A stretch of DNA of 64,000 nt from an uncultured bacterium (lineage in GTDB: Bacteria > Fidelibacterota > Marinisomatia > Marinisomatales > UBA1611): positions 13,394 to 77,393 of the forward strand of contig CALSPG010000010.1 in the NCBI GenBank assembly GCA_943788175.1, in the 5' to 3' direction. The notes below the pieces were generated by a model. It made no database searches, was not told where the DNA came from, and worked only from the letters and a program-made list of their open reading frames with translations. The translations under genes and the position numbers were made by a program. This document shows positions 25,899-42,038 of the stretch, piece by piece; position 1 is the stretch's first letter; each line of letters opens with the position of its first letter.

Positions 25899-28049
25899 AT
25901 GATTAAAAACCCAAACTACCTATTATTACTTCTATTAGTTATAGTAGGCTGTTCGAAAAAAAATGAAAGAGGCGGTAAAATGAACAGACTCGGAGAATCT
26001 CAAAGTCCTTATTTACTTCAACACAAAAATAACCCCGTTGATTGGTACCCTTGGAGTGAAGATGCTTTCAATAAGGCAAAAAAACAAAACAAACCGATTT
26101 TTCTATCCATTGGATATTCAACTTGTCATTGGTGTCATGTTATGGAACATGAATCTTTTGAAGATAATGAAGTCGCTAAACTGATGAATGATAATTTTAT
26201 TTCAATCAAAGTCGATCGTGAAGAAATGCCAGAAATTGACCATCTTTACATGTCAGTTTGTCAAGCGATGACTGGCAGAGGTGGATGGCCATTGACGATT
26301 GTAATGACACCGGAGAAAGAACCTTTTTTCGCAGGAACTTACTTCCCTAAAAAAGGTAACAACAACCAGCCTGGCATGATGGAACTCATTCCATCTTTAA
26401 TGAATGCCTGGAATAATAAACAAGATGATATAAAAAAAACAATTGAACAAGTAAATAACTACTTAATAAGGTCAAATAATTACGAAGGCAGTAAGCAGAT
26501 AAATGAAGAAACAATTAAAAATGCATTTGTGAACTTTAGCAAAAGATTTGATAATGAGTTTGGCGGTTTCGGGGACTCGCCGAAGTTTCCATCTCCTCAC
26601 AACCTCATTTTTTTACTTCGCTATTATAAAACTTATGGTGATACGATTGCAAAAAACATGGCCATTGAAACACTTCAGCATATGAGGGCTGGAGGAATTT
26701 TTGATCATATCGGATATGGTTTCCATCGTTATGCTACAGACAAACGCTGGTTTCTACCTCACTTTGAAAAAATGCTCTATGACCAAGCCATGATTTCAAT
26801 GGCATACTTAGAAGCTTTTAAAGCGACAAAAGATAAAAGTCTAGCAAAAACCACTGAGGATATTTTTACATATGTAATTCGAGATATGATGAAAAAAAAT
26901 GGAGGTTTTTATTCAGCTGAAGATGCAGATAGTGAAGGTGAGGAAGGCAAATTTTACATTTGGACGGATAAAGAAATAAATCATGTCTTAGGCAAAGAAA
27001 AAGGAGAAATTTTTCAAAAAGTATATGGAATAAGAAGAGAAGGAAATTTTATCGATGAAGCATCAGGTCGTGCAATGCCTGGGAACATACCTTTTTTAAA
27101 GTCAAGTTTACCTGCATTTGCAAAATTAGAGAACCTAGATATAAATGAACTGTCTAAATCAATTGATGAAAGTAGAGAGCTTTTATTTATTGAAAGAGAA
27201 AAAAGAATTCACCCTCTAAAAGATGATAAGATATTAACAGATTGGAATGGGCTAATGATTGCTGCCATGGCAAAAGGCGGAAAAATTTTAAAAAAGCCTG
27301 TTTACATAGATGCTGCCATTAAATCTGCTGATTTCATTATTAAAAATTTGAGAGATAGTGACGGAAAACTCAAAAAAAGGTATAGAAATAATCAGGCTGG
27401 ATTACAACCACATATAGATGACTATGCATTTTTTATTTGGGGTATTCTAGAACTATATGAAGCAACATTCGAAACTCGCTTTCTAATGTCTGCTTTAGAA
27501 TTATCAAAAATCATGGTTGATGATTTTTATGATGAAAAAAAGGGCGGGTTTTTTATTGGCCCAAATGACGGGGAAAAACTAATTATTAGAGCCAAAGATA
27601 GCTATGATGGAGCTATTCCTTCGGGCAATGCAGTTGCAGCAATGAATTGTATAAAATTAAGTAAGTATACTGGTGACTTGAAGTGGGAAAAAATCGCATT
27701 CAAAACAATTAAAGCTTTTTCAAACAAAATTAACCAAGCTCCTTCAGCTCATGCTTCAATGTTAAGTTCATTTATGTTCGGAACAAAAAATCCAAAAGAA
27801 ATAGTCGTTGTGGGCAAAGAGCTGAATGGCGAAGTAATTGATAAAATTAAACAGCTTCAAAGTAATTATAACCCCCATACTATTTATATATTTAAATCAT
27901 CAAATGGTGACTCTGATTTGGACAATATTGCACCCTGGACTAAAACACACCATTCAATAAATAATAAAACAACTTATTATATTTGTGAGAATTTTTCCTG
28001 CAAAATGCCCACAACTGAAATTAAAACAGCTTTGAATTATCTTGATTAA
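25899..28049 (+). CDS. YyaL/SPATA20-like thioredoxin-domain protein
   Basis: MNRL...[52 protein letters not shown]; true start may be the internal MNRL. Confidence 0.93.
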
Positions 28050-28107
28050 TTATCTTGAATATATTTTTTCAAATTTTAATTATTAGTGATACATTGCAAG
28101 GCTGCAT

Positions 28108-29400
28108 ATGAAAAATCTAGCATTACATTGGAAAATCATCATAGGATTAGTTTTAGGGCTAATATATGGAATAATAAGCGCATCTAATGGTTGGGGTACA
28201 TTTACCACCAATTGGATTGCTCCTTTTGGCACAATATTTATTAATTTGCTAAAACTCATAGCAGTTCCATTAGTATTTGCTTCCTTAGTATTAGGTGTAG
28301 CCTCACTATCAGATACTAAAAAACTATCAAGGATAGGTGGAAAAACAATTTTAATATATTTATCTACTACATTGATATCTGTTATAATTGGACTTTTTCT
28401 AGTGAATTCTTTAAAGCCTGGGAACCAGATTCCAGAACAGATGAAAATTGAACTCCAAGATACTTATAAAAAAAACCTGGAGTCAAAAACTGATAATGCT
28501 GAAAAAGTGAAAAAAAGAGGTCCTTTAAAACCGCTTGTTGACATGGTCCCAAATAATATTGTTTTTTCAGCATCAAATAATAGAAATATGCTACAGATTG
28601 TTTTTGTAGCAATTCTAGTAGGCATCGGACTTATTCAAATACCAAAGAATAAATCAAAAGAGTTTTTAGGTTTTTTTGAGGGTCTAAACGAAGTAGTTCT
28701 TAAAGTAATTGATATAATTATGCTTATGGCACCTTTAGGAGTTTTTGCACTTATTTCCCAAACAATTAATAAGGTAGTTGGCGATAACATCAGCCAGGTA
28801 ATAGAACTCATCAGTGCATTAGGATTCTATATGTTCACGTTAACATTAGGTCTCTTTTTACATGTTATTATTACTTATCTATCGCTGTTAAAAATTTATT
28901 CTAGAATGCCCATAGAAAAATTTTTTAAAGGCATAGCACCTGCTCAATTATTAGCATTTTCTACAAGCTCTAGTGGAGCCACATTGCCAATAACCATGGA
29001 AAGATGCGAAGAGGAGCTCGGCGTATCTGAGGAGGTATCATCTTTTGTCTTGCCTCTTGGCGCAACCATAAACATGGATGGAACAGCACAGTATCAAGCT
29101 GTAGCAGCAGTATTTATTTCTCAGGCACTAGGTATGGATTTATCATTAACGGATCAAGTCACGATTGTTTTGACAACAGTTTTAGCCTCAATTGGTACAG
29201 CAGCGGTACCAGCAGCAGGTATTATTATGTTAATTATTATACTAGAATCAGTAGGAGTTCCAAGTGCTGGTGTTGCTCTTATTCTAGGCGTAGATAGAAT
29301 TTTAGACATGATTAGAACTACCGTAAATGTAACTGGAGATGCAGCTGTTGCGGTTTCAGTAGCAAGTAGCGAAAAGCAATTAAAATCATATAGTAAATAA
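28108..29400 (+). CDS. Dicarboxylate/amino acid:cation symporter (DAACS, GltP-like)
   Basis: AFSTSSSGATLP, GATINMDGT, GVDRILDMIRTTVNVTGD. Confidence 0.95.
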   Translation: MKNLALHWKIIIGLVLGLIYGIISASNGWGTFTTNWIAPFGTIFINLLKLIAVPLVFASLVLGVASLSDTKKLSRIGGKTILIYLSTTLISVIIGLFLVNSLKPGNQIPEQMKIELQDTYKKNLESKTDNAEKVKKRGPLKPLVDMVPNNIVFSASNNRNMLQIVFVAILVGIGLIQIPKNKSKEFLGFFEGLNEVVLKVIDIIMLMAPLGVFALISQTINKVVGDNISQVIELISALGFYMFTLTLGLFLHVIITYLSLLKIYSRMPIEKFFKGIAPAQLLAFSTSSSGATLPITMERCEEELGVSEEVSSFVLPLGATINMDGTAQYQAVAAVFISQALGMDLSLTDQVTIVLTTVLASIGTAAVPAAGIIMLIIILESVGVPSAGVALILGVDRILDMIRTTVNVTGDAAVAVSVASSEKQLKSYSK

Positions 29401-29450
29401 TGTTTTTTATAAAGCATAAAGGGAATAATTTCCATGATAATTAAAAAAAT

Positions 29451-29627
29451 AATTTGGGCGGGTTCTGTTAATTCCGGATCGACAATTATATAATTAGGAG
29501 GCTGTACTTCGTTTTCAAAAAACAGGCCTTTCCAAATTTTAATTTGGATCAAGGAAGTTTGCTAAAAGCGGGAGGCCACCACCGTTCTTTAAACTAAGAA
29601 GGGTCCTGAAAACTGCCTGCCCATATT
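29451..29627 (+). ncRNA. ssrS: 6S RNA
   Basis: ~177-nt rod: closing stem TGGGCGGGT/GCCTGCCCA, GGATC/GGTCC helix, AT-rich central bubble (ACAATTATATAATT) opposite a small TTCTT..AAGAA hairpin, GGAGGCT/GGCCACC helix, apical CCAAATT/AATTTGG hairpin. GC-rich island in AT-rich DNA. Folded by eye; no covariance search run. Confidence 0.78.
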
Positions 29628-29636
29628 TCTAAAAAT

Positions 29637-30800
29637 ATGAATAATAATAATAATAATAATAAAAGAAATAGAATTCCGAGAGGCTATCTTCCTGAAGATT
29701 CTGATAGACGTCTAGATTGGCTCAAGAATGAACATGATTTTGAATTAAAAAACCTGCCACCTAATGAAACTGAAGAGTTAAAAGGTATTATAGAAAACCA
29801 TGTCGGTTTTATGCAAATGCCAATGGCAATTGCTGGACCAGCAATCATTGATGGTAAATATGCTAAAGGTGAGTTTGCAATACCTTTATGTACAATTGAA
29901 GGTAGTTTAGCGGCATCAATGAATCGCGGTCTTTATGCATCCTCTTTATGCGGTGGAATGAAGGTAAAACACTTTCGTCAAGAGCTTTCAAGATCACCAA
30001 TTTTTATTTTTGATGATTTAAAAAAGAGTGATAAATTTCAAAACTGGGTAAATGAGCACTTAGATAAAATCAAAAAAGCAGCGCAATCTACCACACAATA
30101 CGGTAAAGTGATTCGAATTGATCAATATGCAATTCAAAATTATGTTTTATTAGATTTTATTCTTGATACTGGGAATGCTGCCGGGCAAAACATGGTAACT
30201 CTAGCCACAAATGTTGCTTGTGAATATATTAGACAAGAAACGGGACATAAATTTTTTCTTGATTCAAATTTAGCCAGCGATAAAAAAGCATCTTCTAGGA
30301 ACATGATACTCGGCAGAGGTCACGGTGTTATTGCAGAAACGCACATAACAAAATCCGTTATGTCTAGGGTCCTTAATGTTGATCCCGATTTTGTTATAGA
30401 AAATTGGACTTACTTTCCTATTGTATCAGCGATGGCGGGAACCCTTGGAAATGCCATCCATGCTTCAAACGCTCTGACAGCAATTTACATTGCAACGGGT
30501 CAAGATACTGCCTGCGTTGCAGAAAACTCTGTTGGACATTTTACAGTGGAAAAAGTTGACGACGGTATTACTTGGAGATTAACCTTACCATCAATGACTG
30601 TTGGCACAGTTGGTGGCGGAACTAGATTAAATCAACAACAACAAAACTTACAACTTTTAGGCTGCGACAGTAGTGAGCATTCATCTAGAAAGCTTGCTGA
30701 AATCATAGCTGCAGCTGCTTTAGGTCTAGAAATTTCATTAGGATCAGCAATCATGTCCCATACATGGACAAGTGCGCATATGAAATACGGTAGAAAATAA
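29637..30800 (+). CDS. Class I HMG-CoA reductase-like acyl-CoA reductase
   Basis: ENHVG, PLCTIEGSLAAS (E88), NAAGQNM, SNLASDKK (K216), GQD (D290), VGTVGGGT, C-terminal AHMK (H381). Confidence 0.9.
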   Translation: MNNNNNNNKRNRIPRGYLPEDSDRRLDWLKNEHDFELKNLPPNETEELKGIIENHVGFMQMPMAIAGPAIIDGKYAKGEFAIPLCTIEGSLAASMNRGLYASSLCGGMKVKHFRQELSRSPIFIFDDLKKSDKFQNWVNEHLDKIKKAAQSTTQYGKVIRIDQYAIQNYVLLDFILDTGNAAGQNMVTLATNVACEYIRQETGHKFFLDSNLASDKKASSRNMILGRGHGVIAETHITKSVMSRVLNVDPDFVIENWTYFPIVSAMAGTLGNAIHASNALTAIYIATGQDTACVAENSVGHFTVEKVDDGITWRLTLPSMTVGTVGGGTRLNQQQQNLQLLGCDSSEHSSRKLAEIIAAAALGLEISLGSAIMSHTWTSAHMKYGRK

Positions 30801-30811
30801 AAAACACTACT

Positions 30812-31537
30812 ATGAATGTACTTGATAACCCCAAGTATTCTCATTTATTAAAACGCCAGCCTTTTTATCATCGTATTGGTAAGACATTGCTATATAACTG
30901 GGCCAAGTTTATTTTTTTTTGGTACACACCACTGAGTGTTTTTGGCAAAGAGAATATTCCCAATGATTCTTTTATTTTTTGCAGCAATCATAATGCTCAT
31001 TTGGATGTCATTGCATTATCTCTTTCAGCAAATAAAAACTTTAATAATGTTGGAATGCTTGCAGCTAAAGACTATTGGTTCGATAACTGGCTTCGAAGAA
31101 ACATAATGAAACCGGTAATGAACCTCATTCCTCTTGGTCGAAAATCACACCTTGGAAAAGATATAACCTTTGAGCAAACTCTAGAATTATCAAATTGTTT
31201 TATGAATGTTGATAAGCGTTGTATTATTATATTTCCTGAGGGAACTAGAGGTCAACCAGATGTATTAAAACGATTTCGAAAAGGTCCAGCACGATTATCA
31301 ATAGGAACAGGAAAACCAATCCTTCCTGCCGTTGTCATGGGTTCAGGAAAATCTTGGCCAAAAGGAAAATTTATTTTTAAACCTGGTAAAATTCATGTTT
31401 ACATTCTAAAGCCTATAGACCCTAATTCATTCACTATAAGAGACAAAAATAATGAAAAAGACCTTTTCAAAACTGCAGAGGCCATGACAAAAGAATTAGA
31501 AGAAAAAATTACGAGTAAATTGGAAGAATTAACATGA
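30812..31537 (+). CDS. PlsC-family glycerolipid acyltransferase (candidate DHAP or lyso-alkyl-G3P acyltransferase)
   Basis: NHNAHLD (HX4D), AAKDYWF, FPEGTRG, PILP motifs. Confidence 0.9.
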   Translation: MNVLDNPKYSHLLKRQPFYHRIGKTLLYNWAKFIFFWYTPLSVFGKENIPNDSFIFCSNHNAHLDVIALSLSANKNFNNVGMLAAKDYWFDNWLRRNIMKPVMNLIPLGRKSHLGKDITFEQTLELSNCFMNVDKRCIIIFPEGTRGQPDVLKRFRKGPARLSIGTGKPILPAVVMGSGKSWPKGKFIFKPGKIHVYILKPIDPNSFTIRDKNNEKDLFKTAEAMTKELEEKITSKLEELT

Positions 31538-33306
31538 GTAGTAGTAAAAAAGAAAAGTTTTATGGAGTAAACGATGAACTCTGGGGCCATAAATGGGGTT
31601 TTAAAGATTCATCTTTTATAATAAATGATGACAATTCTATCACATTTACTGGCGCAAGGTATGATGGAATATCTGGAGAAAAATTGCCTTATCTAATCCC
31701 TTTTGTTACCAAAGTTTTAGATACAGAGATAAATAAGGAACCTTACTTTAAAGAAGTTAAAAAAAAGTTTGTTTCTGAACGGATATTAAACAGAGCGTTT
31801 ATTGATGCAATTGAATCTTCTTTTGCAGAAGATAAACTTTCATTAAGTGATGATGAGAGAATTCTTCACAGCCATGGCCAAAATTCTCCAGATGAAGTTT
31901 TCAAAGTATTGTATGACAAACTTGATAAGTTCACGGATCTTATTATTTATGTTGAAACTGAGGAAGACGTTGTTTTATTAATAGACCTCGCAAAAAAACA
32001 TAATGTGTGTCTTGTCCCATTTGGTGGCGGAACTAATGTCACAAATGCACTCCAGTTACCAAAGAATGAAACTAGAATGATAGTTACTGTTGACACAAGG
32101 AGATTAAATAGAATTATTTCTATAGATCAAAAAAATCTTCTAGTTGAAGTAGAGGCTGGTATTACAGGTAAAGAATTAGAAAAGCAACTTCAAGATAAAG
32201 GGTATACTACTGGCCACCAACCAGATAGTATTGAGCTATCTACTGTAGGTGGCTGGATATCTACTAATGCCGCAGGTATGAAAAAAAACCGATATGGAAA
32301 TATTGAAGATATTGTTCAAAACCTAGTTATGGTCACTCCAAATGGGATAATAAATCAAATTGAGCCACTGGTGAGGTCCTCAATTGGTATAAAAACACAA
32401 AACATTCTTTTCGGTTCTGAAGGCAATCTAGGTATAATAACAAAAGCCACAATGAAAATTCATAGATTACCAGAATGTAGTGACTATGAATCGGTTGTCA
32501 TGAAGGATTGGAATACTGGACTGGATTTTATGTACGAGCTCGCTCACTCAAATACAATACCTGCTAGTGCAAGAATGCTTGATAGTTTACACTATCAATT
32601 TGGAAGCGCATTAAAACCAGAAAAAACAAATTTCGGAAAATTCAAAAGTAAAATTCAAAAGTTAGCATTTAAAATTAAAAATTTCGATGCAGATCATTTT
32701 GTTGCAGCAGTCTTCAAACTAGAAGGAACATTTTCCGAAGTAGAATACCAAAGAAAAAATATAAAAAATCTTGCAAGAAAGTATAATGGATTGCTTGGTG
32801 GTCGCAAGGAAGGAAAAGTTGGTTACAACATAACAATGGTTATAGCATACATACGCGAATTTTTTGTACCACAGGGGATTCTTGGCGAAACTTTAGAAAC
32901 AGCAGTCCCATGGTCAAAAGTAAATCAAGTAAAAGACGAAGCAAATAAACTACTAACAAAATTGCACAAAGAATATAATCTTCCAGGAAAACCATTTTTT
33001 TGTTCAAGAGTTTCAAAAATTTATCACACTGGGGTTTGTATGTATAATACAATGGGAATTAATGTTAGAGGAGTTAAAAACCCTGAAAAAGTTTTTAGTG
33101 ATATTGAGCATAAAATTAGAGCTTGTTTTATTAAAAATGGCGGTTCAATCTCGCATCATCACGGAGTAGGAAAATTGAGGAAAGAGTTTATGCCCGAGAC
33201 CATTTCAATTGGTAGTATTCAGGTGATACAGAATATTAAAAAATCACAAGACCCAGATAACATATTTGGAATTGATAACAATATTGTAAACAAGATTCAG
33301 GATTAA
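31534..33306 (+). CDS. Alkyl-dihydroxyacetonephosphate synthase (AGPS/ADPS)-like flavoenzyme
   Basis: KWGFKDS, VPFGGGTNV, GHQPDSIELSTVGGWISTNAAGMKKNRYGNIEDIV, GSEGNLGIIT, PASARMLD, VIAYIRE, GVCMY, GGSISHHHGVGKLRK, DPDNIFG; all match AGPS-specific blocks as I recall them. Confidence 0.9.
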   Translation: MSSSKKEKFYGVNDELWGHKWGFKDSSFIINDDNSITFTGARYDGISGEKLPYLIPFVTKVLDTEINKEPYFKEVKKKFVSERILNRAFIDAIESSFAEDKLSLSDDERILHSHGQNSPDEVFKVLYDKLDKFTDLIIYVETEEDVVLLIDLAKKHNVCLVPFGGGTNVTNALQLPKNETRMIVTVDTRRLNRIISIDQKNLLVEVEAGITGKELEKQLQDKGYTTGHQPDSIELSTVGGWISTNAAGMKKNRYGNIEDIVQNLVMVTPNGIINQIEPLVRSSIGIKTQNILFGSEGNLGIITKATMKIHRLPECSDYESVVMKDWNTGLDFMYELAHSNTIPASARMLDSLHYQFGSALKPEKTNFGKFKSKIQKLAFKIKNFDADHFVAAVFKLEGTFSEVEYQRKNIKNLARKYNGLLGGRKEGKVGYNITMVIAYIREFFVPQGILGETLETAVPWSKVNQVKDEANKLLTKLHKEYNLPGKPFFCSRVSKIYHTGVCMYNTMGINVRGVKNPEKVFSDIEHKIRACFIKNGGSISHHHGVGKLRKEFMPETISIGSIQVIQNIKKSQDPDNIFGIDNNIVNKIQD

Positions 33307-33309
33307 TCT

Positions 33310-34110
33310 TTGGACCTTGTTAATAAAGTATGCGTAATAACTGGAGCGTCTTCCGGTATTGGAAAATCTTTAGCAACAAAACTTTCCCTAAGAGGTGCTA
33401 AAGTTGTTTTAGCCGCAAGAAGAAACTCTAAACTTGAAGAAATAAGACAAGGCATTGAAAAAGAAGGCGGTAAATGCTTTGGTGTGAAAACAGATATTAC
33501 TAAAAAATTAGAATGTAAGAATCTCATTGATGAGACAATTAATCGATATAAAAAAATAGATATATTAATTCTAGCTGCTGGTGTAAGTATGTGGTCCCCA
33601 TTTGAAGAAATATCTGATATTTCTTTTTTTGATGACCTTATGGCCACTAATTATACTGGTGCAGTCCATTGCGTTCATGCAGCCTTACCTAGCCTTATAT
33701 CAACAAATGGTATGATTGTTTCCTGCTCAACTGCACAAGCGATTGTAGGATTTACAAACCATTCTGGTTATGCTGCCTCAAAACATGCTTTGCACGGTTT
33801 TTTAGATACTTTAGAAATGGAACTTAATGGTAAAGTAAAATTTTTAGAAACTTGTTTGGGTTGGATTAAAGGAACAAATATGCGATCTAATGCATTTGGT
33901 CCTAATGGTAAAAAAATGGGCGAAACAAAAAGAAAACACAGTAGTAATTCTGTTGATCTAGATGTTTGTATTGAAAAAATAATTTCTGCTATAGTAATTG
34001 AAAAAGAGAAAGTTTACATTCCTTGGAAGCTGAAATTGATTCCATTTCTTGATTTATTTTTTGGAAAATTTCTAAGAAACAAAATAAATAGAGCAGTACA
34101 CTCTGAATAA
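33310..34110 (+). CDS. NADPH-type short-chain dehydrogenase/reductase, DHRS7/DHRS7B-like (candidate acyl/alkyl-DHAP reductase)
   Basis: TGASSGIG, ARR (NADP preference), YAASKHALHGFLDTL; TTG start 3 nt after AGPS stop. Confidence 0.8.
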   Translation: MDLVNKVCVITGASSGIGKSLATKLSLRGAKVVLAARRNSKLEEIRQGIEKEGGKCFGVKTDITKKLECKNLIDETINRYKKIDILILAAGVSMWSPFEEISDISFFDDLMATNYTGAVHCVHAALPSLISTNGMIVSCSTAQAIVGFTNHSGYAASKHALHGFLDTLEMELNGKVKFLETCLGWIKGTNMRSNAFGPNGKKMGETKRKHSSNSVDLDVCIEKIISAIVIEKEKVYIPWKLKLIPFLDLFFGKFLRNKINRAVHSE

Positions 34111-34133: not shown

Positions 34134-35279
34134 TTACTTTACCATTTTTAAATATTTAGATATAATTCTCAACATTATTTCGTCTGTACCACCACCTATT
34201 GAGTGGAGTCGTCCATCTCGGTATAGTTTTGCTGCTTGATTTTCCCAAGTGAATCCCATTCCACCATAGTACTGAATACACGTATCAGCAACCTCTCGAA
34301 TTAATCTACCACTCTTTAATTTTGCCATTGATGCCAATAAAGTAACATCCTCGCCTCTGATGTAATTTTCACACGCCCTATATATCAAAGACCTTAAAGC
34401 TTCTACTTCTGTTTTTAACTCAGATAAGCGAAATTGAATTGCTTGATTATCAATTATATTTTTTCCAAATGCTTTTCTTTCGCTACAATATTCTATTGTG
34501 TAATCTATACAATTATCCATTGAAACAAGTATGCTTGCTGCTAGAAAGAGCCTTTCTTCTTGAAACTGCTCCATTTGCATCTTGAAACCATCCCCTTCAA
34601 TTCCAATTCTATATTTTTGAGGAACACATACATTATCAAAATAGACTGGTGCTGTATCTGAAGATCTAAAACCTAGTTTGTCAATTTTATCACCAATACT
34701 TACTCCTTTTGTATTTGACGGTATTATAATTAAGGACTTATTTATATGAGGTTTATCATCACTTGTATTAACTAGCGTACAAAAATAGTCAGCTTGAGTT
34801 GCATTTGTTATCCACATTTTTTGACCATTAATTATGTAATCCTTTCCTCTTTTAATAGCATTAGTTTTTAGCGATGATACATCTGAACCACCACCAACTT
34901 CACTTATAGCAACAGAAGTAACTTTTTCACCTTTAATTGCAGGAACTAAAAACTCCTTTTTTAATTCTTCAGAACCATACCGCTCAAGGGCTGGTGTTGC
35001 CATATCAGTTTGCACACCTATTGCTGTAACTACACCACAATCGTCAGCGTGTCCTAAGGCCTCAGCAAATATTAGACCATAACTATAATCTAAACCCATG
35101 CCGCCAAAATCTTCACTCTTGGTTATACCAAGCAAATCCAGTTTACCCATTTTTTTAAACAAATCATGAGCAGGAAAAAAACCATTTTGTTCCCATTCAT
35201 CGGCAAAAGGTTTGATCTCTTTTTTTACAAATTCTTTTACCGTATTAAACAATGCTTTTTTTTCTTCATTCAAATACAT
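34134..35279 (-). CDS. atuD: Acyl-CoA dehydrogenase, citronellyl-CoA dehydrogenase (AtuD)-like
   Basis: GVQTDMATPAL, SEVGGGSDV, NGQKMWITNATQAD, QFQEERL, SIGGGTDEIM; atu context. Confidence 0.75.
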   Translation of the reverse strand: MYLNEEKKALFNTVKEFVKKEIKPFADEWEQNGFFPAHDLFKKMGKLDLLGITKSEDFGGMGLDYSYGLIFAEALGHADDCGVVTAIGVQTDMATPALERYGSEELKKEFLVPAIKGEKVTSVAISEVGGGSDVSSLKTNAIKRGKDYIINGQKMWITNATQADYFCTLVNTSDDKPHINKSLIIIPSNTKGVSIGDKIDKLGFRSSDTAPVYFDNVCVPQKYRIGIEGDGFKMQMEQFQEERLFLAASILVSMDNCIDYTIEYCSERKAFGKNIIDNQAIQFRLSELKTEVEALRSLIYRACENYIRGEDVTLLASMAKLKSGRLIREVADTCIQYYGGMGFTWENQAAKLYRDGRLHSIGGGTDEIMLRIISKYLKMVK

Positions 35280-35304
35280 TTATTATCCTTTATTGTGATA
35301 TAAA

Positions 35305-36105
35305 TTATTTTTTAATTGTCCACGATGGTTTACGTTTATTAAAAAAAGAGTCAAATCCTTCTCTTCCATCATTACTAATAATACTATCAGAAAATAAATC
35401 AGCTGCTCTCCGGGAATCAATATTTTGGTTTAAGGACAATATTTTTTTAGTAGTCGCTATTGCAGCAGGCGAGCAGTTGATGACATCAGATTTAAAATCG
35501 TTTATTTTTTTTTCAAGTGCCTCATTATTATTTGCAACAAAATCAACCAATCCAATTTTACTTGCCTCCAACCCATCAATTATAGTTCCCAAAAGCATCA
35601 TTTTTCTCGCTTTTGAATAGCCTAATTTATTTATTACATATTTTGAAATTTGTGATGGCGTTAGACCTATTTTAGTTTCAGTGAGACCAAATTTTGTATT
35701 TTCCAAAGATATAACAAAATCTGAAGCACACGCGATCCCAAAACCGCCAGCAAGTGCAAACCCCTCCGTAACCGAAACGACAATTTGAGGCGCTTGATTT
35801 ATCACTTTAAGTAATTTCCCAATGGTCATACTAAAATCATATGCTTGATTTTTAGCTTCTTTTCCTGATTCAGTTATTTTTTTCATTTTTTTTAAATCTG
35901 CTCCAGCACAAAATACACCACCATCACCCCTTAAAAAAATTGCACGAATATCTTTATTATCCTTTGCAACGTCAAAGACAATTAATAGTTCTTCGACTAA
36001 ACTTTCTTTAAGGGAATTCCTGTTTACCGCATTATTAAACAGTATTTCTAGCCAACCATTTTTATTATTTAATATAAGATCTTGTGTTTTTGGAAATTGA
36101 TTCAT
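35305..36105 (-). CDS. atuE: Enoyl-CoA hydratase, isohexenylglutaconyl-CoA hydratase (AtuE)-like
   Basis: FCAGADLK, AGGFGIACASD, FGLTETKIG, KRKPSW; start placed at MNQFP. Confidence 0.7.
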   Translation of the reverse strand: MNQFPKTQDLILNNKNGWLEILFNNAVNRNSLKESLVEELLIVFDVAKDNKDIRAIFLRGDGGVFCAGADLKKMKKITESGKEAKNQAYDFSMTIGKLLKVINQAPQIVVSVTEGFALAGGFGIACASDFVISLENTKFGLTETKIGLTPSQISKYVINKLGYSKARKMMLLGTIIDGLEASKIGLVDFVANNNEALEKKINDFKSDVINCSPAAIATTKKILSLNQNIDSRRAADLFSDSIISNDGREGFDSFFNKRKPSWTIKK

Positions 36106-36142
36106 TCTGTATCCATAATTTAAAAAAGTCTGCCTTAAGTAA

Positions 36143-37765
36143 TTATAACCTAGCGATACCAAAACTATTAGATTTGGTAGTGCGGTTTAACGTTTCCCAA
36201 AATGTATCTAATAAAAAACCGAGGATTTCTCTTGTTTTGACTGGTTCAATAATACCATAGTCTAATCCTCTACCAGAAGTGGTAAAAGCATCAGATTGAG
36301 CATTATATTTTTCAGCAATTTTAATTATTTGGTTTTTCAATTTTTCATTATCTATCTCTACACCTTTTCTTTTAGCAGAACTAATCATAACCTGCTCCAT
36401 GGTTTTTGCAGCTTGTTCTCCTCCCATTACACCAATCATTGCATTAGGCCACGAAAATATAAAATCAGGCTTATAAGCATACCCACACATAGCATAATTT
36501 CCTGCTCCAAAACTAGCACCTATATTAAAAGTTATTTTAGGAACTCTTACATTTGATACCGCTTGAATTAACTTTGCTCCATGTTTAATCATACCAAGTT
36601 GCTCAGATTGTTTTCCAACCATAAACCCAGTTGTATTACTTAAAAATATTAATGGGATATTTGACTGATCACATAATTGAATGAATTGAGCTGCTTTTGT
36701 AGCACCGTTTGGGTCAATGGGGCCATTATTACCTATTACCCCACAGGGATGACCATAAATTTTTGTTTGGATACAGACAGTGGAAACACCATAGAGAGGC
36801 TTAAAATCAATAAAATCAGAACCGTCAACAAGCCTTGCCACAACCTCTCGAACATCGTAAGGGATTTTGTAATCAGCAGAGACAACCCCAATTAATTCAT
36901 TCACATCATAAATTGGATTATCAAACGAGATGTTTTCACGACTCTTTAAACTAGAATTCCAATCAATTTTATCAATTACTTCTCGTGTGATTTTTATGGC
37001 ATGTTCATCATCTTCAGCAAGATATTCTACTAAACCTGTAATTCTTGCATGCATTTCGCTGCCACCTAACTCATCTTTATCTGCGATCTGTCCAGTCGCT
37101 GCTTTTAGCAATGCTGGTCCAGCTAATGCAGCCATTCCATTTTTTTTTACACCTACTACGTAGTCACTCATACCAGGTTGATATGCACCACCTGCCGTAG
37201 ACAGACCATGCAATATTGCAATTGTAGGAATTCCTGCAGCACTAAGTTTTGCAAGTCCATAAAACATACCTCCAGTATTAGACCAAAATTCAACTGTATA
37301 GTTCATTAAATTAATTCCAGCACTTTCAACAAGGTGAATAAATGGTAATTTTTGTTTTAAGGATATTTCTAAGCAACCTAATGCTTTATCAATCGATTTT
37401 GCGGTCAAGGCGCCCGCATTTATTCCACTATCATCAACAAAGACCATACTTCGGACACCACTTATAAATCCAATGCCAGCAATTACACTAGCTCCGGAGA
37501 TGCTAGTATCTTCATTATTATCATCTACTAAATAACTAATCATATTAAATAATTCTATAAAAGACGTATTAGGATCTAATAATGCTGAAAGTCTTTCTCT
37601 AGGAGTAAGCTGCCCTCTTTCAATAAATTTTTCTCTTCGTCTTTCTGACACCTTTTCAGCTCGTCCTTTTATAGAATTCATTTTTTTAATTAACGAACCA
37701 AACTGATTTTTATTATTTATAAAATTCTCGGATTCAGAATCTATTTTAGTTTTAAATATTGTCAT
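36143..37765 (-). CDS. atuC: Acyl-CoA carboxylase beta subunit, geranyl-CoA carboxylase (AtuC)-like
   Basis: RGQLTPRER, HLVESAG, TAGGAYQPGMSDY, NTTGFMVG, GASFGAGNYAMCG, C-terminal FGIARL. Confidence 0.8.
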   Translation of the reverse strand: MTIFKTKIDSESENFINNKNQFGSLIKKMNSIKGRAEKVSERRREKFIERGQLTPRERLSALLDPNTSFIELFNMISYLVDDNNEDTSISGASVIAGIGFISGVRSMVFVDDSGINAGALTAKSIDKALGCLEISLKQKLPFIHLVESAGINLMNYTVEFWSNTGGMFYGLAKLSAAGIPTIAILHGLSTAGGAYQPGMSDYVVGVKKNGMAALAGPALLKAATGQIADKDELGGSEMHARITGLVEYLAEDDEHAIKITREVIDKIDWNSSLKSRENISFDNPIYDVNELIGVVSADYKIPYDVREVVARLVDGSDFIDFKPLYGVSTVCIQTKIYGHPCGVIGNNGPIDPNGATKAAQFIQLCDQSNIPLIFLSNTTGFMVGKQSEQLGMIKHGAKLIQAVSNVRVPKITFNIGASFGAGNYAMCGYAYKPDFIFSWPNAMIGVMGGEQAAKTMEQVMISSAKRKGVEIDNEKLKNQIIKIAEKYNAQSDAFTTSGRGLDYGIIEPVKTREILGFLLDTFWETLNRTTKSNSFGIARL

Positions 37766-37786
37766 TCACTTTACCTATTTTATCGA

Positions 37787-39577
37787 TCAAAAATTATCTT
37801 TTGTTATTTTTTTATAAATTAATTCTGGAATCGCAATCTTTGCATTTAAAATGTATTGAGCATAAGCCTTTCCCTGGGGGTCAAGAAGTAAGCTCGACAT
37901 TCCACCACCTCCTAGACTATTTTTTACTAAAAAGTTCAATCCATTTATTTTTGGTAGCTCCCAGCAAACAACAGATTTTTCAGTACAATTTTTAAAAAAA
38001 GAAGATATTTTTTCCGTAGTCAAAGTTTTTTTTATATATGAAAAATATTCAGGCTCTCTAGAAATAATACCAACGTTTACATGATTACCTTTATCCCCAC
38101 TTCTAGCATATGCCAAATTTATTAAACGAGTTTCAAAACTATAATCGCTAGTATTACCACCTAACTTCGCAGGCGTTGTATTTGAAGAGATATTTAATTT
38201 ATCAGAATTTTCAATTTCAACGGATTCTACGGTATTATTAAAATCAATCTGGCATTTAACTTTCTTTTTATCTAACATAAAAGAAAATAAATTAATTGAC
38301 GGAGAAATTGATGGCCTTCCACCTAAATAGTTCATTATACCCGGAGCCATCCCAGTAGCCGCTTGAGCTATTTCCCTAGATAATATAATAAGAGCTTCTT
38401 TTTCTTCATGCCTTGCAGCAACTCTTAATACCACTTCATTGCTACCTTTGAAATTACTATGATCATTGATATTTTCAGATCCTATTACAGAAACATTAAT
38501 ATCTTTATATGCAGAAAAATTTTGTTCAATAAAAATATCTTTAGTTCTTTTTAAAATGGAATTACCAACAGAGTATGCTTTTTTTACGGCTTTCGGACCA
38601 CCTATAACTAAAGTTGCAACAGTTTTAAATCCGTCTTGGTATGTTGCAGACACTTTATAGAAGTTTGAAGGCCTGTTGCCTTTCACTCCTTTTACCGAAA
38701 CGACATCATTACCCTTATCTTTAATGGAGACATTTGTGAAATCACATATCACATCGGGAAGGAGGTAACTACTCGGATTTCCAATTTCGTACAAAAACTG
38801 TTCTGCAACTGTTCCAAAATTGACAATTCCTCCAGTATTTTTAGGCTTTGTAACAATAAAGTTACCATTTTTTTCTACTTCTATAATTGGAAACCCAATA
38901 TTATCAAACCTTTCTACAGATTCCCAATCAGTAAAGTTTCCACCAGTGCATTGAGCTCCACACTCAATAATGTGCCCTGCTAGACTACCACTAGCAAGGA
39001 GGTCATAGTCATCAGTCTTCCAATCAAATTCATACATTAAAGGACCAAGTACTAAAGCACTATCAACGCATCTGCCAGTAATTACTATATCAGCATCAAG
39101 CTCTAAGGCTGCCTTTATTCCTGGAGCACCTAGATACGCATTCACGCTTAATAAGTTTTCTGGAAGGGACTCATTTGTATCAATTTCTTTGATATTACTT
39201 GAGCGTAAATCTTTTTCAAGATGTAAAAGATCATCACCTTCAAGTATTATAATTTTTAAATCAACAGCTTCTTTTTTTGCTTCTTCAAGCAATGCTTTTC
39301 TACACGCTTCAAGATTCACTCCACCAGCATTACTTATAATTTTGATGTTCTTTTCTTTAATTTTTTTTATTAAAGGACCAACGTGGTTTATAAAATCTTT
39401 AGCATAACCATGACTATTATTTTTTAATTTTGCACCTGCCAAAATTGACATTGAAACCTCTGCTAAGTAGTCAAAAACTAAATAATTAATGTTGCCCTTA
39501 TTTACTAATTGAGGGGCAGCAATATCGGTGTCACCCCAAAACCCTGATGCACAACCTATTTTAACCTTTTTTTTCAA
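37787..39577 (-). CDS. atuA: Acyclic terpene utilization AtuA (DUF1446) protein
   Basis: IGCASGFWGD, VFDYLAEVSMSIL, NAYLGA, TGRCVDSA, GHIIECGAQCTGGNF, ARSGDKG, DPQGK. Confidence 0.93.
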   Translation of the reverse strand: MKKKVKIGCASGFWGDTDIAAPQLVNKGNINYLVFDYLAEVSMSILAGAKLKNNSHGYAKDFINHVGPLIKKIKEKNIKIISNAGGVNLEACRKALLEEAKKEAVDLKIIILEGDDLLHLEKDLRSSNIKEIDTNESLPENLLSVNAYLGAPGIKAALELDADIVITGRCVDSALVLGPLMYEFDWKTDDYDLLASGSLAGHIIECGAQCTGGNFTDWESVERFDNIGFPIIEVEKNGNFIVTKPKNTGGIVNFGTVAEQFLYEIGNPSSYLLPDVICDFTNVSIKDKGNDVVSVKGVKGNRPSNFYKVSATYQDGFKTVATLVIGGPKAVKKAYSVGNSILKRTKDIFIEQNFSAYKDINVSVIGSENINDHSNFKGSNEVVLRVAARHEEKEALIILSREIAQAATGMAPGIMNYLGGRPSISPSINLFSFMLDKKKVKCQIDFNNTVESVEIENSDKLNISSNTTPAKLGGNTSDYSFETRLINLAYARSGDKGNHVNVGIISREPEYFSYIKKTLTTEKISSFFKNCTEKSVVCWELPKINGLNFLVKNSLGGGGMSSLLLDPQGKAYAQYILNAKIAIPELIYKKITKDNF

Positions 39578-39717
39578 ATACTATAACCTTTCAAACATTG
39601 ATTCATTAATTATACAAAAAAAATAAGCACTCAAACATGATAAAATGGAATTCGTTAAATATCTGTAATTATCTATCATTTAAATATATTTTCAGTATAA
39701 ATAAACTAATAAAATAT

Positions 39718-40996
39718 TTAAGAAAATAGTTCATTGATATCTTTTACTCCATTAAAAAAAGAAGGCACTAAAAAGCGATTACCAAAGGAATCAAATAAGT
39801 CATTAGATTTTATTTTAAATTTATCTATACCATAATTTTCAATATATGAAAAAACACCTGGTTTTGGAAACCCCCAGCCGTATACACTGCCTACATTAGC
39901 TTCAGCTAGAGAATTAAGAACCCCCTGATCATAACAATTAAGAGCTTCAATTACTTGAGAAAATATCAAACGCTCGCACATTCGGTTTTTTGAAATTTCT
40001 TTACGATTTGATGTGATTTTTGTACCAAGGCCAGACCATAATTTTTTAACTCCATTTTCAGGATAGTCGTAAGAACCCTTTTTTGTTGATTCTTCCTAAT
40101 CGACCAAATTCATTAATCATCAAACTAAGTACTTCATCCCATGGCTGTTCTAAAAGTTTTGATTCTCCACTATCAGTATTTTTTCGTTCTTGATTTCGAA
40201 TGTTAAAAGCAACCTTTAAGCTAATCTCATCAAGGACAGCTAATGGCCCAACAGGGAAGCCGACCTCTTTACCTGCTGATTCTATAGCATAAGCATCATT
40301 ACCTTCATGAAGTAAAGCCATCCCTTCCAATGCATATTTCATAAAAACACGGGTAGTAAAGAAACCAGGAGCATCATTTACAACTACAGGTATTTTTTTA
40401 ATTGTTTTAACAAAGTCTAATGTTCTAGCCAACGTATTAGAACTTGTAAAATCACTTTTAATAATTTCAACAAGTTTCATCTTATGGACAGGAGAAAAAA
40501 AATGGATGCCAATAAAATTTTCTGGTCGAACTGATACTTTTGCCAATTTAGATATTGGAATGGTAGATGTGTTTGAGGAAAAAATGCTATTATTTTCTAT
40601 GATCTTTTCAGCAGCGATAGTTACGTCTCTTTTTAGAGCTGTATCTTCATAAACTGCTTCAATCACTAAATCACAGCCTTTTAAATCAGATACCTCAGTT
40701 GATACTTTTATACTTTCTAAACACTTTTCCATTTGACTATTTGAAAAGAAGTTTTGCCTAACATCATTTTTAAAAATTTCTTCAATTTTTGAAAACGCAG
40801 TTAATACATTTTTCTTTGAGTTATCTATTAAAATAACTTTAAACCCGTAATAAGATGAAACATAAGCAATTCCATGCCCCATTAGTCCAGAACCAATAAT
40901 TCCTATCTTTTTAAATTTTGATTTTAAGGATCCTGATGTTCTTAAAGATTTAATTTTAATCTCCTTTAAGAAATTTGAAAAAGTATCTTCTGTCAT
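39718..40996 (-). CDS. 3-hydroxyacyl-CoA dehydrogenase (FadJ/FadB C-terminal part, no hydratase domain); frameshifted
   Basis: GSGLMG, IEAVYED, SNTSTIPI, GIHFFSPV, D.PGF. Continues after about 2 indels (~40070, ~39990) as GFYDYPENGVKKLW...MCERLIF...ANVGSVYGWGFP. Confidence 0.85.
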
Positions 40997-41030
40997 GAAA
41001 TGTTTAAATTATTAAAACCACTAATTAATT

Positions 41031-42038
41031 TCATTTACTTTTCCCATGTTTTAAAACAATCCTACCGATTTGCTCCCCATTGAGCATCTTTTTTATCTCG
41101 GGAAACAGCTCATCAATAAGAACTGTTTTATGCAGTGACTTTAGATTGTTTAACTTCCAATCTGACCCAAATAATTTCCATATTTTAGATTTTTTATTAA
41201 TTGAAGTTTTCGCAGAATCAATACCCACCAATTGATTAGCTCTCAGAATAAAGGGATACACATTTGCATCAAAATTTGGACTACTTACATTGCCACAGCA
41301 TGCAATAATCCCACCATATTTCATGCTAACAATTAAAGCCGATAAAATAGAACCTCCAACAACATCAATTGCAAAACTCCAGGTACTTTTGCTTAGTGGT
41401 TTTTTTGTTGAATCAAGAAGATCACTAACTGAGACAACTTCGTTAGCTCCAATCATCATTAAATATTCTTTCGAATCTATGCTACTTGTTATTGCAGTTA
41501 CATCGGCTCCCATCATATTTAGAAGCTTAATTGCGATAGTGCCGACTCCTCCAGTAGCCCCTGATACAACAACCTTTTTACCTGAAATATCATTTTTTTT
41601 TATAATCATTTCAATGCATAGCCCAGCTGTAAGACCAGCCGTTCCAAGAATCATTGATTCTAGGCTTTGAAGTCCCTTTGGGAGGCGACAAACCCATTCT
41701 TTTGGCACACGAATATATTCTCCAAAGCCACCAGCGGTATTCATTCCAAGGTCATATCCTGAAACAATAACTTTATCTCCAACATTAAATTGCGAGACAG
41801 ATGATTTTTTAACAATACCAACAGCATCAATTCCAGGCGTGTGTGGATAGTTTTTTGAAACACCTCTGTTGCCAGAGAAAGAAAGAGCATCTTTATAATT
41901 TAAAGAGCTATGAGATACCTTAATTAACAAATCATTTATAGGAAGATCAACGATTTTTCTTTGTTTAATACTTTGGCTAAATGATCCTGTTGTATTTTTT
42001 TCAATCACTACAGCTCTAAATGTATTTTTATTTATCAA
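41031..42038 (-). CDS. YhdH/AcuI-family MDR oxidoreductase (acryloyl-CoA reductase-like)
   Basis: SSLNYKDAL, TPGIDAVG, GTAGLTA, GATGGVG, YPFILR...GIDS. Confidence 0.9.
   Translation of the reverse strand: MINKNTFRAVVIEKNTTGSFSQSIKQRKIVDLPINDLLIKVSHSSLNYKDALSFSGNRGVSKNYPHTPGIDAVGIVKKSSVSQFNVGDKVIVSGYDLGMNTAGGFGEYIRVPKEWVCRLPKGLQSLESMILGTAGLTAGLCIEMIIKKNDISGKKVVVSGATGGVGTIAIKLLNMMGADVTAITSSIDSKEYLMMIGANEVVSVSDLLDSTKKPLSKSTWSFAIDVVGGSILSALIVSMKYGGIIACCGNVSSPNFDANVYPFILRANQLVGIDSAKTSINKKSKIWKLFGSDWKLNNLKSLHKTVLIDELFPEIKKMLNGEQIGRIVLKHGKSK

Follow-up and report, generated by a model that had tools for sequence, protein, structure and literature searches.

A conserved FcrA-acyltransferase-AGPS-SDR cassette in a marine Fidelibacterota genome as a candidate operon for alkyl-ether glycerolipid synthesis

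The stretch of DNA analysed here, hereafter the window, comprises 64,000 nucleotides of contig CALSPG010000010.1 from an uncultured bacterium (assembly GCA_943788175.1), and contains a cassette of four + strand genes between positions 29637 and 34110. These encode a reductase of the HMG-CoA reductase (HMGR) fold resembling the fatty acyl-CoA reductase FcrA, an acyltransferase (AT), an AGPS-type flavoenzyme and an SDR-family reductase, which together may constitute a pathway for alkyl-ether glycerolipids. The host assembly (2.27 Mb in 12 contigs, 92 % complete) belongs to the phylum Fidelibacterota (Marinimicrobia, SAR406), placed by NCBI within the FCB group, in agreement with an earlier reading made from the DNA alone (the sequence-only reading), which had suspected a marine FCB lineage.

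Genes and features of the cassette

29401-29636, + strand: intergenic region 5' of fcrA, 236 nt; presumed promoter region and the sole long gap in the + strand block
29637-30800, + strand: gene 1, fcrA-type gene, 387 aa; PF00368, 352.8 bits
30812-31537, + strand: gene 2, acyltransferase gene, 241 aa; PF01553, 63.5 bits
31534-33306, + strand: gene 3, AGPS gene, 590 aa; PF01565 and PF02913
33310-34110, + strand: gene 4, SDR gene, 266 aa, TTG start; PF00106, 156.3 bits

Direct reading of the junctions and the list of open reading frames (ORFs) agree with the close, co-oriented spacing that had been reported. Genes 1 and 2 are joined by TAA, 11 nt and ATG, genes 2 and 3 share an ATGA stop/start overlap (31534-31537), and genes 3 and 4 are joined by TAA, 3 nt and the TTG start. 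A Na+:dicarboxylate symporter (SDF) gene is the upstream neighbour of gene 1, across the 236-nt gap, and the downstream neighbour of the SDR gene is convergent and 23 nt off. The sequence immediately 5' of the fcrA start is conserved among loci of the same genus. Prediction of regulatory elements between 29300 and 34400 gave no signal, with 22 sigma-70-like sites compared with 20.0 +/- 4.1 in shuffled sequences and one terminator-like site compared with 2.7, and the whole window yielded no Rfam matches.

The sequence identifies gene 1 as a fatty acyl-CoA reductase of the FcrA type with a class-I HMGR fold, and not as the enzyme of the mevalonate pathway. It scores 285.9 bits against TIGR00533, under the equivalog cut-off of 441.8, and falls outside canonical HMGR by that model. 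In alignments with the HMGR structures 1dq8 (human) and 6hr7 (archaeal), its E88, K216, D290 and H381 fall on the human catalytic residues Glu559, Lys691, Asp767 and His866, and the pocket is altered, with D209 at the S684 position, W377 at the L862 position and Y259/F260 where the HMG-binding lysine is expected. We take this lysine to be human Lys735, and the assignment of human numbers to the motifs is in part provisional. No N-terminal Lad or ACP domain is present. The FcrA markers given by Grossi et al. (ISME J 2025; PMC11948995), who print the HMG-binding lysine as Lys795, are the retention of Glu559/Lys691/Asp767/His866 and the replacement of Ser684, Leu862 and the lysine. According to the same source, Ser684 is replaced in FcrA (by Glu in N. 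pharaonis), Leu862 by a bulky residue (Trp) and the HMG-binding lysine by a non-basic residue, and in the assay reported there a single enzyme carried out both reduction steps on an acyl-CoA substrate (PMC11948995).

The signature extends to the relatives of gene 1. Among 34 AGPS-linked orthologues, the catalytic tetrad is invariant save for one X at the Glu position, the S684 position is occupied by E (30) or D (4), the L862 position by W (16) or F (18), and the position of the HMG-binding lysine holds Lys in none. A library of 1.84 billion proteins yielded 2800 representatives; of the best 150, 106 combine an acidic with an aromatic residue at the S684 and L862 positions and only seven carry the canonical Ser/Leu pair, the first of them at rank 62 with 235 bits, compared with 357 bits for the best match. 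A FastTree phylogeny was built from 144 domains of at least 320 residues (seven shorter ones dropped), its groups being defined by residues and its rows being library representatives, with characterised FcrA and HMGR proteins not among them. The gene 1 protein falls in a seven-row clade of exclusively FcrA-signature proteins (support 100), and the seven canonical Ser/Leu rows form one clade separate from it. Five of the nine multidomain relatives scanned are fusions of AMP-binding (with or without ACP) and HMGR-like domains, an architecture that puts the HMGR-like domain in the position of a terminal thioester reductase.

In many FcrA-like representatives (P0024, P0038, P0062, P0036, P0055) the protein is joined to a kinase-like domain of the APH/EcKL type, and in some to AMP-binding and ACP domains as well. 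A recent report attributes phosphorylation of 1-O-alkylglycerols to the APH-type kinase domain of ACAD10 (PMC13596139), and these fusions may offer a further connection between FcrA and ether lipids. At the DNA level, the fcrA frame of the window opens with an in-frame (AAT)7 repeat (29640-29660), encoding Asn7 at the N-terminus. This length-variable trinucleotide repeat has six units in the closest relatives (L036, L037), and contig assemblies break there.

Gene 1 is the only PF00368 gene in the host genome, which possesses the methylerythritol phosphate (MEP) pathway enzymes Dxr (476 bits) and IspH. No match to diphosphomevalonate decarboxylase (TIGR01240) was found in this 92 %-complete genome, and the best match to mevalonate kinase (TIGR00549) was a GHMP kinase with 107 bits, under the cut-off of 163; given the incompleteness of the genome, in which HMG-CoA synthase was not searched for, absence of the mevalonate pathway is unproven. 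The host ispH (G000:C6:229926-230745; L002/L003), which lies outside the window, is interrupted close to its 3' end by a frameshift that divides it between two frames; either the assembly is wrong or the gene is broken, and this bears on the completeness of the MEP pathway.

Enzymes of other alcohol and ether-lipid routes were also sought in the host genome. A WS/DGAT wax synthase was not found in the 92 %-complete sequence, so wax esters are an unlikely sink for the alcohol, and no HGD-D (PlsA/Ger-type) protein was found. The FAR family (PF07993), which matches all 14 control genomes and is too promiscuous to demonstrate absence, gave no strong match (best 55 bits, compared with 228-247 bits for true FAR domains adjoining AGPS elsewhere). 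PF10520 (CarF/PEDS1) was matched neither in the host nor in any of the 14 control genomes, which makes this negative little informative.

Gene 3 encodes a full-length AGPS orthologue, which very probably acts as AGPS, as its family assignment in the sequence-only reading had implied. It matches guinea-pig AGPS (4bby) with an E-value of 3.5e-127 and 428.6 bits, residues 19-582 aligning with 94-656, and the alignment takes in the AGPS-specific N-terminal part ahead of the FAD domain; the next-best family, LctD, reaches 2.8e-24 and 88.9 bits. The AGPS residues R419, R515, Y578 and H615-H617, counted in the alignment, are conserved, Y578 having been located through its difference from the mutant chain 4bca. 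Of these, R419, Y578 and H615-H617 are key residues of the enzyme.

The remaining two proteins are assigned by context. Gene 2 encodes a PlsC-like HX4D acyltransferase with the motifs HNAHLD and FPEGTRG, for which a role as dihydroxyacetone phosphate (DHAP) acyltransferase is somewhat favoured. It is the weakest of the four PF01553 genes of the host genome, and scores 75-94 bits against the AGPS-linked acyltransferases of Poribacteria and cyanobacteria, compared with about 52 bits against the host's own PlsC paralogues. It had been placed in the GNPAT family: membership of the HX4D/GPAT-LPLAT family stands, whereas orthology with GNPAT is not established, the nearest solved structure being PlsC (5kym; E 1.8e-16).

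Gene 4 is a classical SDR of the NADP(H) type, and a proposed function as 1-alkyl-DHAP reductase is fairly likely. It exceeds the NF004825 cut-off of 215 with 238.3 bits and contains the motifs TGASSGIG and YAASK as well as 'AARR' after strand 2, a basic pair at this place being the rule for an NADPH-type cofactor. Its best paralogue in the host genome shares 30 % identity, and the orthologues found immediately 3' of AGPS in Marinimicrobia, Poribacteria and Acidobacteriota loci share 41-59 % (51-52 % in Poribacteria, 41-46 % in Acidobacteriota). The earlier label 'DHRS7B-like' holds for the SDR superfamily and finds no support beyond it in the comparison with solved structures, where the relatives are generic SDRs, with none DHRS7B/11beta-HSD1-like among the 60 listed of 84; the ESM Atlas likewise returned generic SDR clusters only.

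Conservation and neighbourhood of the cassette

Twenty regions were taken from related genomes, and in 18 of them an AGPS orthologue with 47 % identity or more is present. The order FcrA-AT-AGPS-SDR is complete and colinear in 12 of these 18 loci, while the other six are cut by contig ends and keep the same order in their visible part. In none of the 18 is the cassette interrupted by a foreign gene, and the flanking genes differ between genera. The sequence-only reading had proposed conserved co-localisation in related genomes as a check, and the order is indeed retained as far as the contigs reach; this arrangement is far more than chance would produce. Among the best 80 of more than 563 public loci with AGPS relatives, partly the same records as the 18 related loci, 35 show the full order, and their titles name Marinimicrobia or are unlabelled, save for one from Lentisphaeria. 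The closest public AGPS-bearing records are metagenome-assembled genomes (MAGs) of Candidatus Marinimicrobia or Neomarinimicrobiota.

FcrA and the AGPS orthologue occur together in 21 of 41 related genomes and are both absent from the other 20, a co-occurrence that does not amount to a statistical test because the genomes are kin and not independent. When 151 genomes sampled evenly over the phylum were considered, the AGPS orthologue was present in 18, distributed over 4 of 26 families, and in all five genomes checked from two other families FcrA lies approximately 750 bp 5' of AGPS on the same strand. The cassette is thus patchy in its distribution yet moves as a unit. In two genera the DUF255-SDF flank occurs without the cassette, as an empty site.

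Several further loci stand apart from these counts. The genome G004 (same genus, 92 % complete) was considered as a clean deletion of the cassette and rejected, as the flanking SDF gene is missing from it along with FcrA and AGPS. The AGPS-like matches in G027 and G029 (L053/L054) share 29-31 % identity, are missing the first ~100 residues and have no other cassette gene in their vicinity; they were treated as another FAD-oxidase family. In L059 (5254-7245), a 78 %-identical AGPS is accompanied by a frame-broken SDR fragment, without fcrA or the acyltransferase, and this stretch of 35-41 % GC lies inside a contig of 55-68 % GC; the explanation is either a chimeric assembly or recent transfer to an organism of high GC content. 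In another family of the order, the AGPS orthologue at G026:C67:184-1926 (L052) contains one in-frame TAA, and its SDR would fall past the contig end.

Beyond the phylum, the slot held by gene 1 is filled by other reductases. Directly 5' of AGPS-SDR in Poribacteria (L088, L091) lies a 1407-aa fusion of FAR (PF07993 and PF03015), AMP-binding, ACP and acyltransferase domains. The Planktothrix locus encodes an AMP-binding/ACAD/ACP/FAR protein followed by AT, AGPS, SDR and CDP-diglyceride synthase (CdsA), another cyanobacterial locus encodes AMP/ACP/FAR, AT, AGPS and a fatty-acid desaturase, and in one locus a CDP-alcohol phosphatidyltransferase and a phosphatidylserine (PS) decarboxylase precede AT-AGPS. 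As FAR fusions fill the same slot elsewhere, FcrA takes the place of FAR in a neighbourhood otherwise given over to glycerophospholipid synthesis. The idea, put forward in the sequence-only reading, that an HMGR paralogue stands in for FAR is therefore supported by the diagnostic residues, the orphan HMGR in an MEP genome, the co-occurrence with AGPS and the FAR fusions in this slot, and FcrA is the probable source of the alcohol. Additional genes accompany AGPS clusters of cyanobacterial and other origin (L123, 8776-9720; L119, 9528-10469; L103, 4606-6189), namely a fatty-acid desaturase between AGPS and SDR, CdsA, or a CDP-alcohol phosphatidyltransferase with PS decarboxylase, and the desaturase is a candidate modifier of the ether chain.

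Contigs from marine metatranscriptomes of two studies carry the stretch at an identity of at least 99 %. They span the FcrA/AT junction (X2 record 11, X4 record 27) and the AT/AGPS junction (X4 record 28). As their strand and transcript ends are not given and their depth cannot rank the genes, these RNA-library contigs are read as presence of the sequence and not as transcription.

A proposed alkyl-ether route and its alternatives

The four genes are proposed to form one operon that would convert acyl-CoA and DHAP into 1-O-alkyl-sn-glycerol-3-phosphate, the precursor of plasmanyl (alkyl-acyl) glycerolipids, a reading to which we give a probability of about 0.75. In this route, FcrA would reduce fatty acyl-CoA with 2 NADPH to the fatty alcohol, the HX4D acyltransferase would form 1-acyl-DHAP, AGPS would exchange the acyl group for the alcohol to give 1-O-alkyl-DHAP, and the SDR would reduce the keto group with NADPH, after which a housekeeping PlsC and head-group enzymes would complete the lipid. 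Oxygen would be required at no step. The products would be alkyl and not alkenyl lipids, since a vinyl-ether desaturase was not found in the host genome (the PF10520 control being uninformative). The sequence data themselves establish the families of the four genes, the orthology of AGPS and its catalytic residues, the FcrA signature, and the conservation and co-occurrence of the cassette. We infer each of these enzymatic activities, the DHAP specificity of the acyltransferase, the SDR substrate and the final lipid class from family membership and context. The compact pathway of reductase, acyltransferase, AGPS and SDR envisaged in the sequence-only reading is favoured by the conserved residues, the orphan HMGR, the co-occurrence and the displacement of FAR from its slot. 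It is tentative, at somewhat less than even odds, to go further and regard FcrA-AT-AGPS-SDR as a portable, O2-independent module that suffices for the conversion of acyl-CoA and DHAP to 1-O-alkyl-glycerol 3-phosphate (G3P), with AT and SDR defining bacterial families of DHAP acyltransferases and alkyl-DHAP reductases recruited independently of GNPAT and DHRS7B.

A number of observations weigh against the proposed operon function. The cassette is patchy, being found in 18/151 sampled genomes of the phylum, and the RNA-library contigs also cross the convergent SDR/ACAD boundary (X1 record 4, X3 record 22), so that carried-over DNA is possible in them. The known FcrA was characterised with acyl-CoA as its substrate, gene 2 could act at sn-2 of 1-alkyl-G3P instead, and the solved relatives of gene 4 are generic. 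Deletion of AGPS in M. xanthus is reported to lower ether lipids only slightly (PMC9131029), and for the sole cultured member of the phylum the lipid data in its description are limited to fatty acids (PMC11652737).

The closest competitor retains the AGPS chemistry and redistributes the other roles. Gene 2 would transfer its acyl group to sn-2 of 1-alkyl-G3P or else produce alkyl-diacylglycerols as neutral lipids, a housekeeping acyltransferase would provide acyl-DHAP, and the SDR would act on another carbonyl such as a fatty aldehyde. The nearest solved relative of gene 2 is indeed an sn-2 lysophosphatidic acid acyltransferase (PlsC 5kym), three further PF01553 genes are present in the host genome, and the relatives of the SDR are generic only. 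AGPS nevertheless needs acyl-DHAP, for which no ordinary bacterial G3P acyltransferase is known as an efficient source. Both the acyltransferase and the SDR remain AGPS-linked across phyla, and in the published assay FcrA alone performs both reduction steps (PMC11948995); this arrangement is unlikely.

Far less probable are two explanations in which gene 1 has no part in ether-lipid synthesis. Fatty alcohols from FcrA might be destined for wax esters or remain free, with the flavoenzyme acting as a FAD-linked 2-hydroxyacid oxidase, given that work on wax esters led to the discovery of FcrA (PMC11948995) and that most PF01565/PF02913 proteins are 2-hydroxyacid dehydrogenases. This is very improbable in view of the full-length AGPS match, which includes the N-terminal part (428.6 bits, compared with 88.9 bits for LctD), and of the missing WS/DGAT match in the 92 %-complete genome. 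Equally, gene 1 might be a true HMGR acting on HMG-CoA from the adjoining leucine/terpene-type catabolic genes, its link to AGPS being accidental. Its PF00368 score of 352.8 bits and the convergent acyl-CoA dehydrogenase/enoyl-CoA hydratase/carboxyltransferase/AtuA cluster would fit such a role, but the S684, K735 and L862 positions are all changed and the TIGR00533 score lies under the cut-off. Mevalonate-consuming enzymes were not found in the host, where the MEP pathway is present, and neither HMG-CoA lyase nor HMG-CoA synthase was seen among the neighbours scanned. Moreover, the catabolic cluster flanks the cassette within the genus only, whereas FcrA-AT-AGPS-SDR stay together across families, and this explanation has the least to commend it of all.

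Relation to known systems and wider setting of the locus

An operon of AGPS, FAR-AT and NAD-reductase genes in Myxococcus has been described as mirroring the mammalian pathway (PMC9131029; PMC13012113), and the statement in the sequence-only reading that AGPS homologues are known from myxobacteria is accordingly correct (PMC9131029). In both operons AGPS is accompanied by an alcohol-forming reductase, an acyltransferase of the HX4D family and a reductase with a Rossmann fold. In the present cassette, however, the alcohol-forming enzyme is the HMGR-fold FcrA, which is unrelated to FAR, the acyltransferase is a separate protein of 241 aa, the last gene encodes a classical instead of an extended SDR, and the order is reductase-AT-AGPS-SDR; CarF/PEDS1 was not found here (the control being uninformative). 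The animal peroxisomal pathway (FAR1/2, GNPAT, AGPS, DHRS7B/PexRAP) comprises the same four chemical steps, with AGPS as a true orthologue, and differs in using FAR where FcrA is found here, in its organelle and in PEDS1 (no match here, with an uninformative control), while genes 2 and 4 share only a superfamily with GNPAT and DHRS7B.

The FcrA proteins of Grossi et al. share with gene 1 the fold, the catalytic tetrad, the three changed pocket positions and a genome apparently without the mevalonate pathway; some carry an N-terminal Lad or ACP domain, which gene 1 does not. The FcrA of Ca. Promineifilum breve serves wax-ester synthesis and is encoded nine genes from an AGPS gene, in contrast to the dedicated four-gene operon of gene 1, in whose genome no WS/DGAT was found. 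ElbD-type proteins and the FAR fusions of Poribacteria (L088, L091) and cyanobacteria (L119, L123) occupy the same AT-AGPS-SDR neighbourhood and presumably supply the alcohol and the acyl donor, but use a FAR (PF07993) reductase and load the acyl group through AMP-binding/ACP domains. The anaerobic PlsA/PlsR and Ger routes also yield bacterial ether glycerolipids, by unrelated chemistry in which an existing ester is reduced.

The novelty of the arrangement is smaller than the sequence-only reading had claimed, since FcrA, the Myxococcus AGPS operon and AGPS homologues of the phylum are already published. Grossi et al. suggest that FcrA alcohol may feed AGPS-dependent ether-lipid synthesis and report that the fcrA of one gammaproteobacterium adjoins a PlsC-like gene (PMC11948995), so the claim of 'no description' was overstated as regards the coupling of an HMGR-type enzyme to AGPS. 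Agps homologues were detected by blastp in 49/134 Black Sea Marinisomatota MAGs, in a report that presents them without gene context (PMC11868695, 2025). The part of the claim that concerns the compact operon stands: a search of full-text literature, which did not extend to supplements possibly containing gene-context figures, returned no description of FcrA-AT-AGPS-SDR and nothing that connects the phylum with alkyl glycerol ethers.

Alkyl glycerol ethers of the non-isoprenoid kind serve as biomarkers in environmental work, and only a minority of their producers are known. The SAR406/Marinimicrobia are an abundant, almost uncultured group in deep-ocean waters and oxygen-minimum zones. If the proposal is true, this ecologically important uncultured clade would gain a variant of the bacterial AGPS operon whose reductase family was first reported in 2025, and FcrA would gain a physiological role beyond wax esters. 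Genes 2 and 4 would be candidates for the bacterial DHAP acyltransferase and alkyl-DHAP reductase, enzymes for which no assigned genes are known, and the locus would exemplify clean non-orthologous displacement, with an HMGR-fold reductase replacing FAR in an otherwise conserved neighbourhood. The compact and conserved operon is moreover a directly clonable candidate for an ether-lipid pathway.

Two features of the surrounding window may be added. Convergent with the cassette, an acyl-CoA catabolic cluster on the - strand (34134-42038) encodes an acyl-CoA dehydrogenase, an enoyl-CoA hydratase, a carboxyltransferase, AtuA, a 3-hydroxyacyl-CoA dehydrogenase and a zinc-type alcohol dehydrogenase (Zn-ADH), with no biotin-carboxylase subunit among the ORFs scanned; it lies beside the cassette within the genus only. 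The cassette itself belongs to a + strand island of six genes (25899-34110), comprising a DUF255 thioredoxin-like gene, the SDF symporter gene and the four genes described above, in a window that is otherwise almost wholly encoded on the - strand, and the GC skew switches sign at this island.

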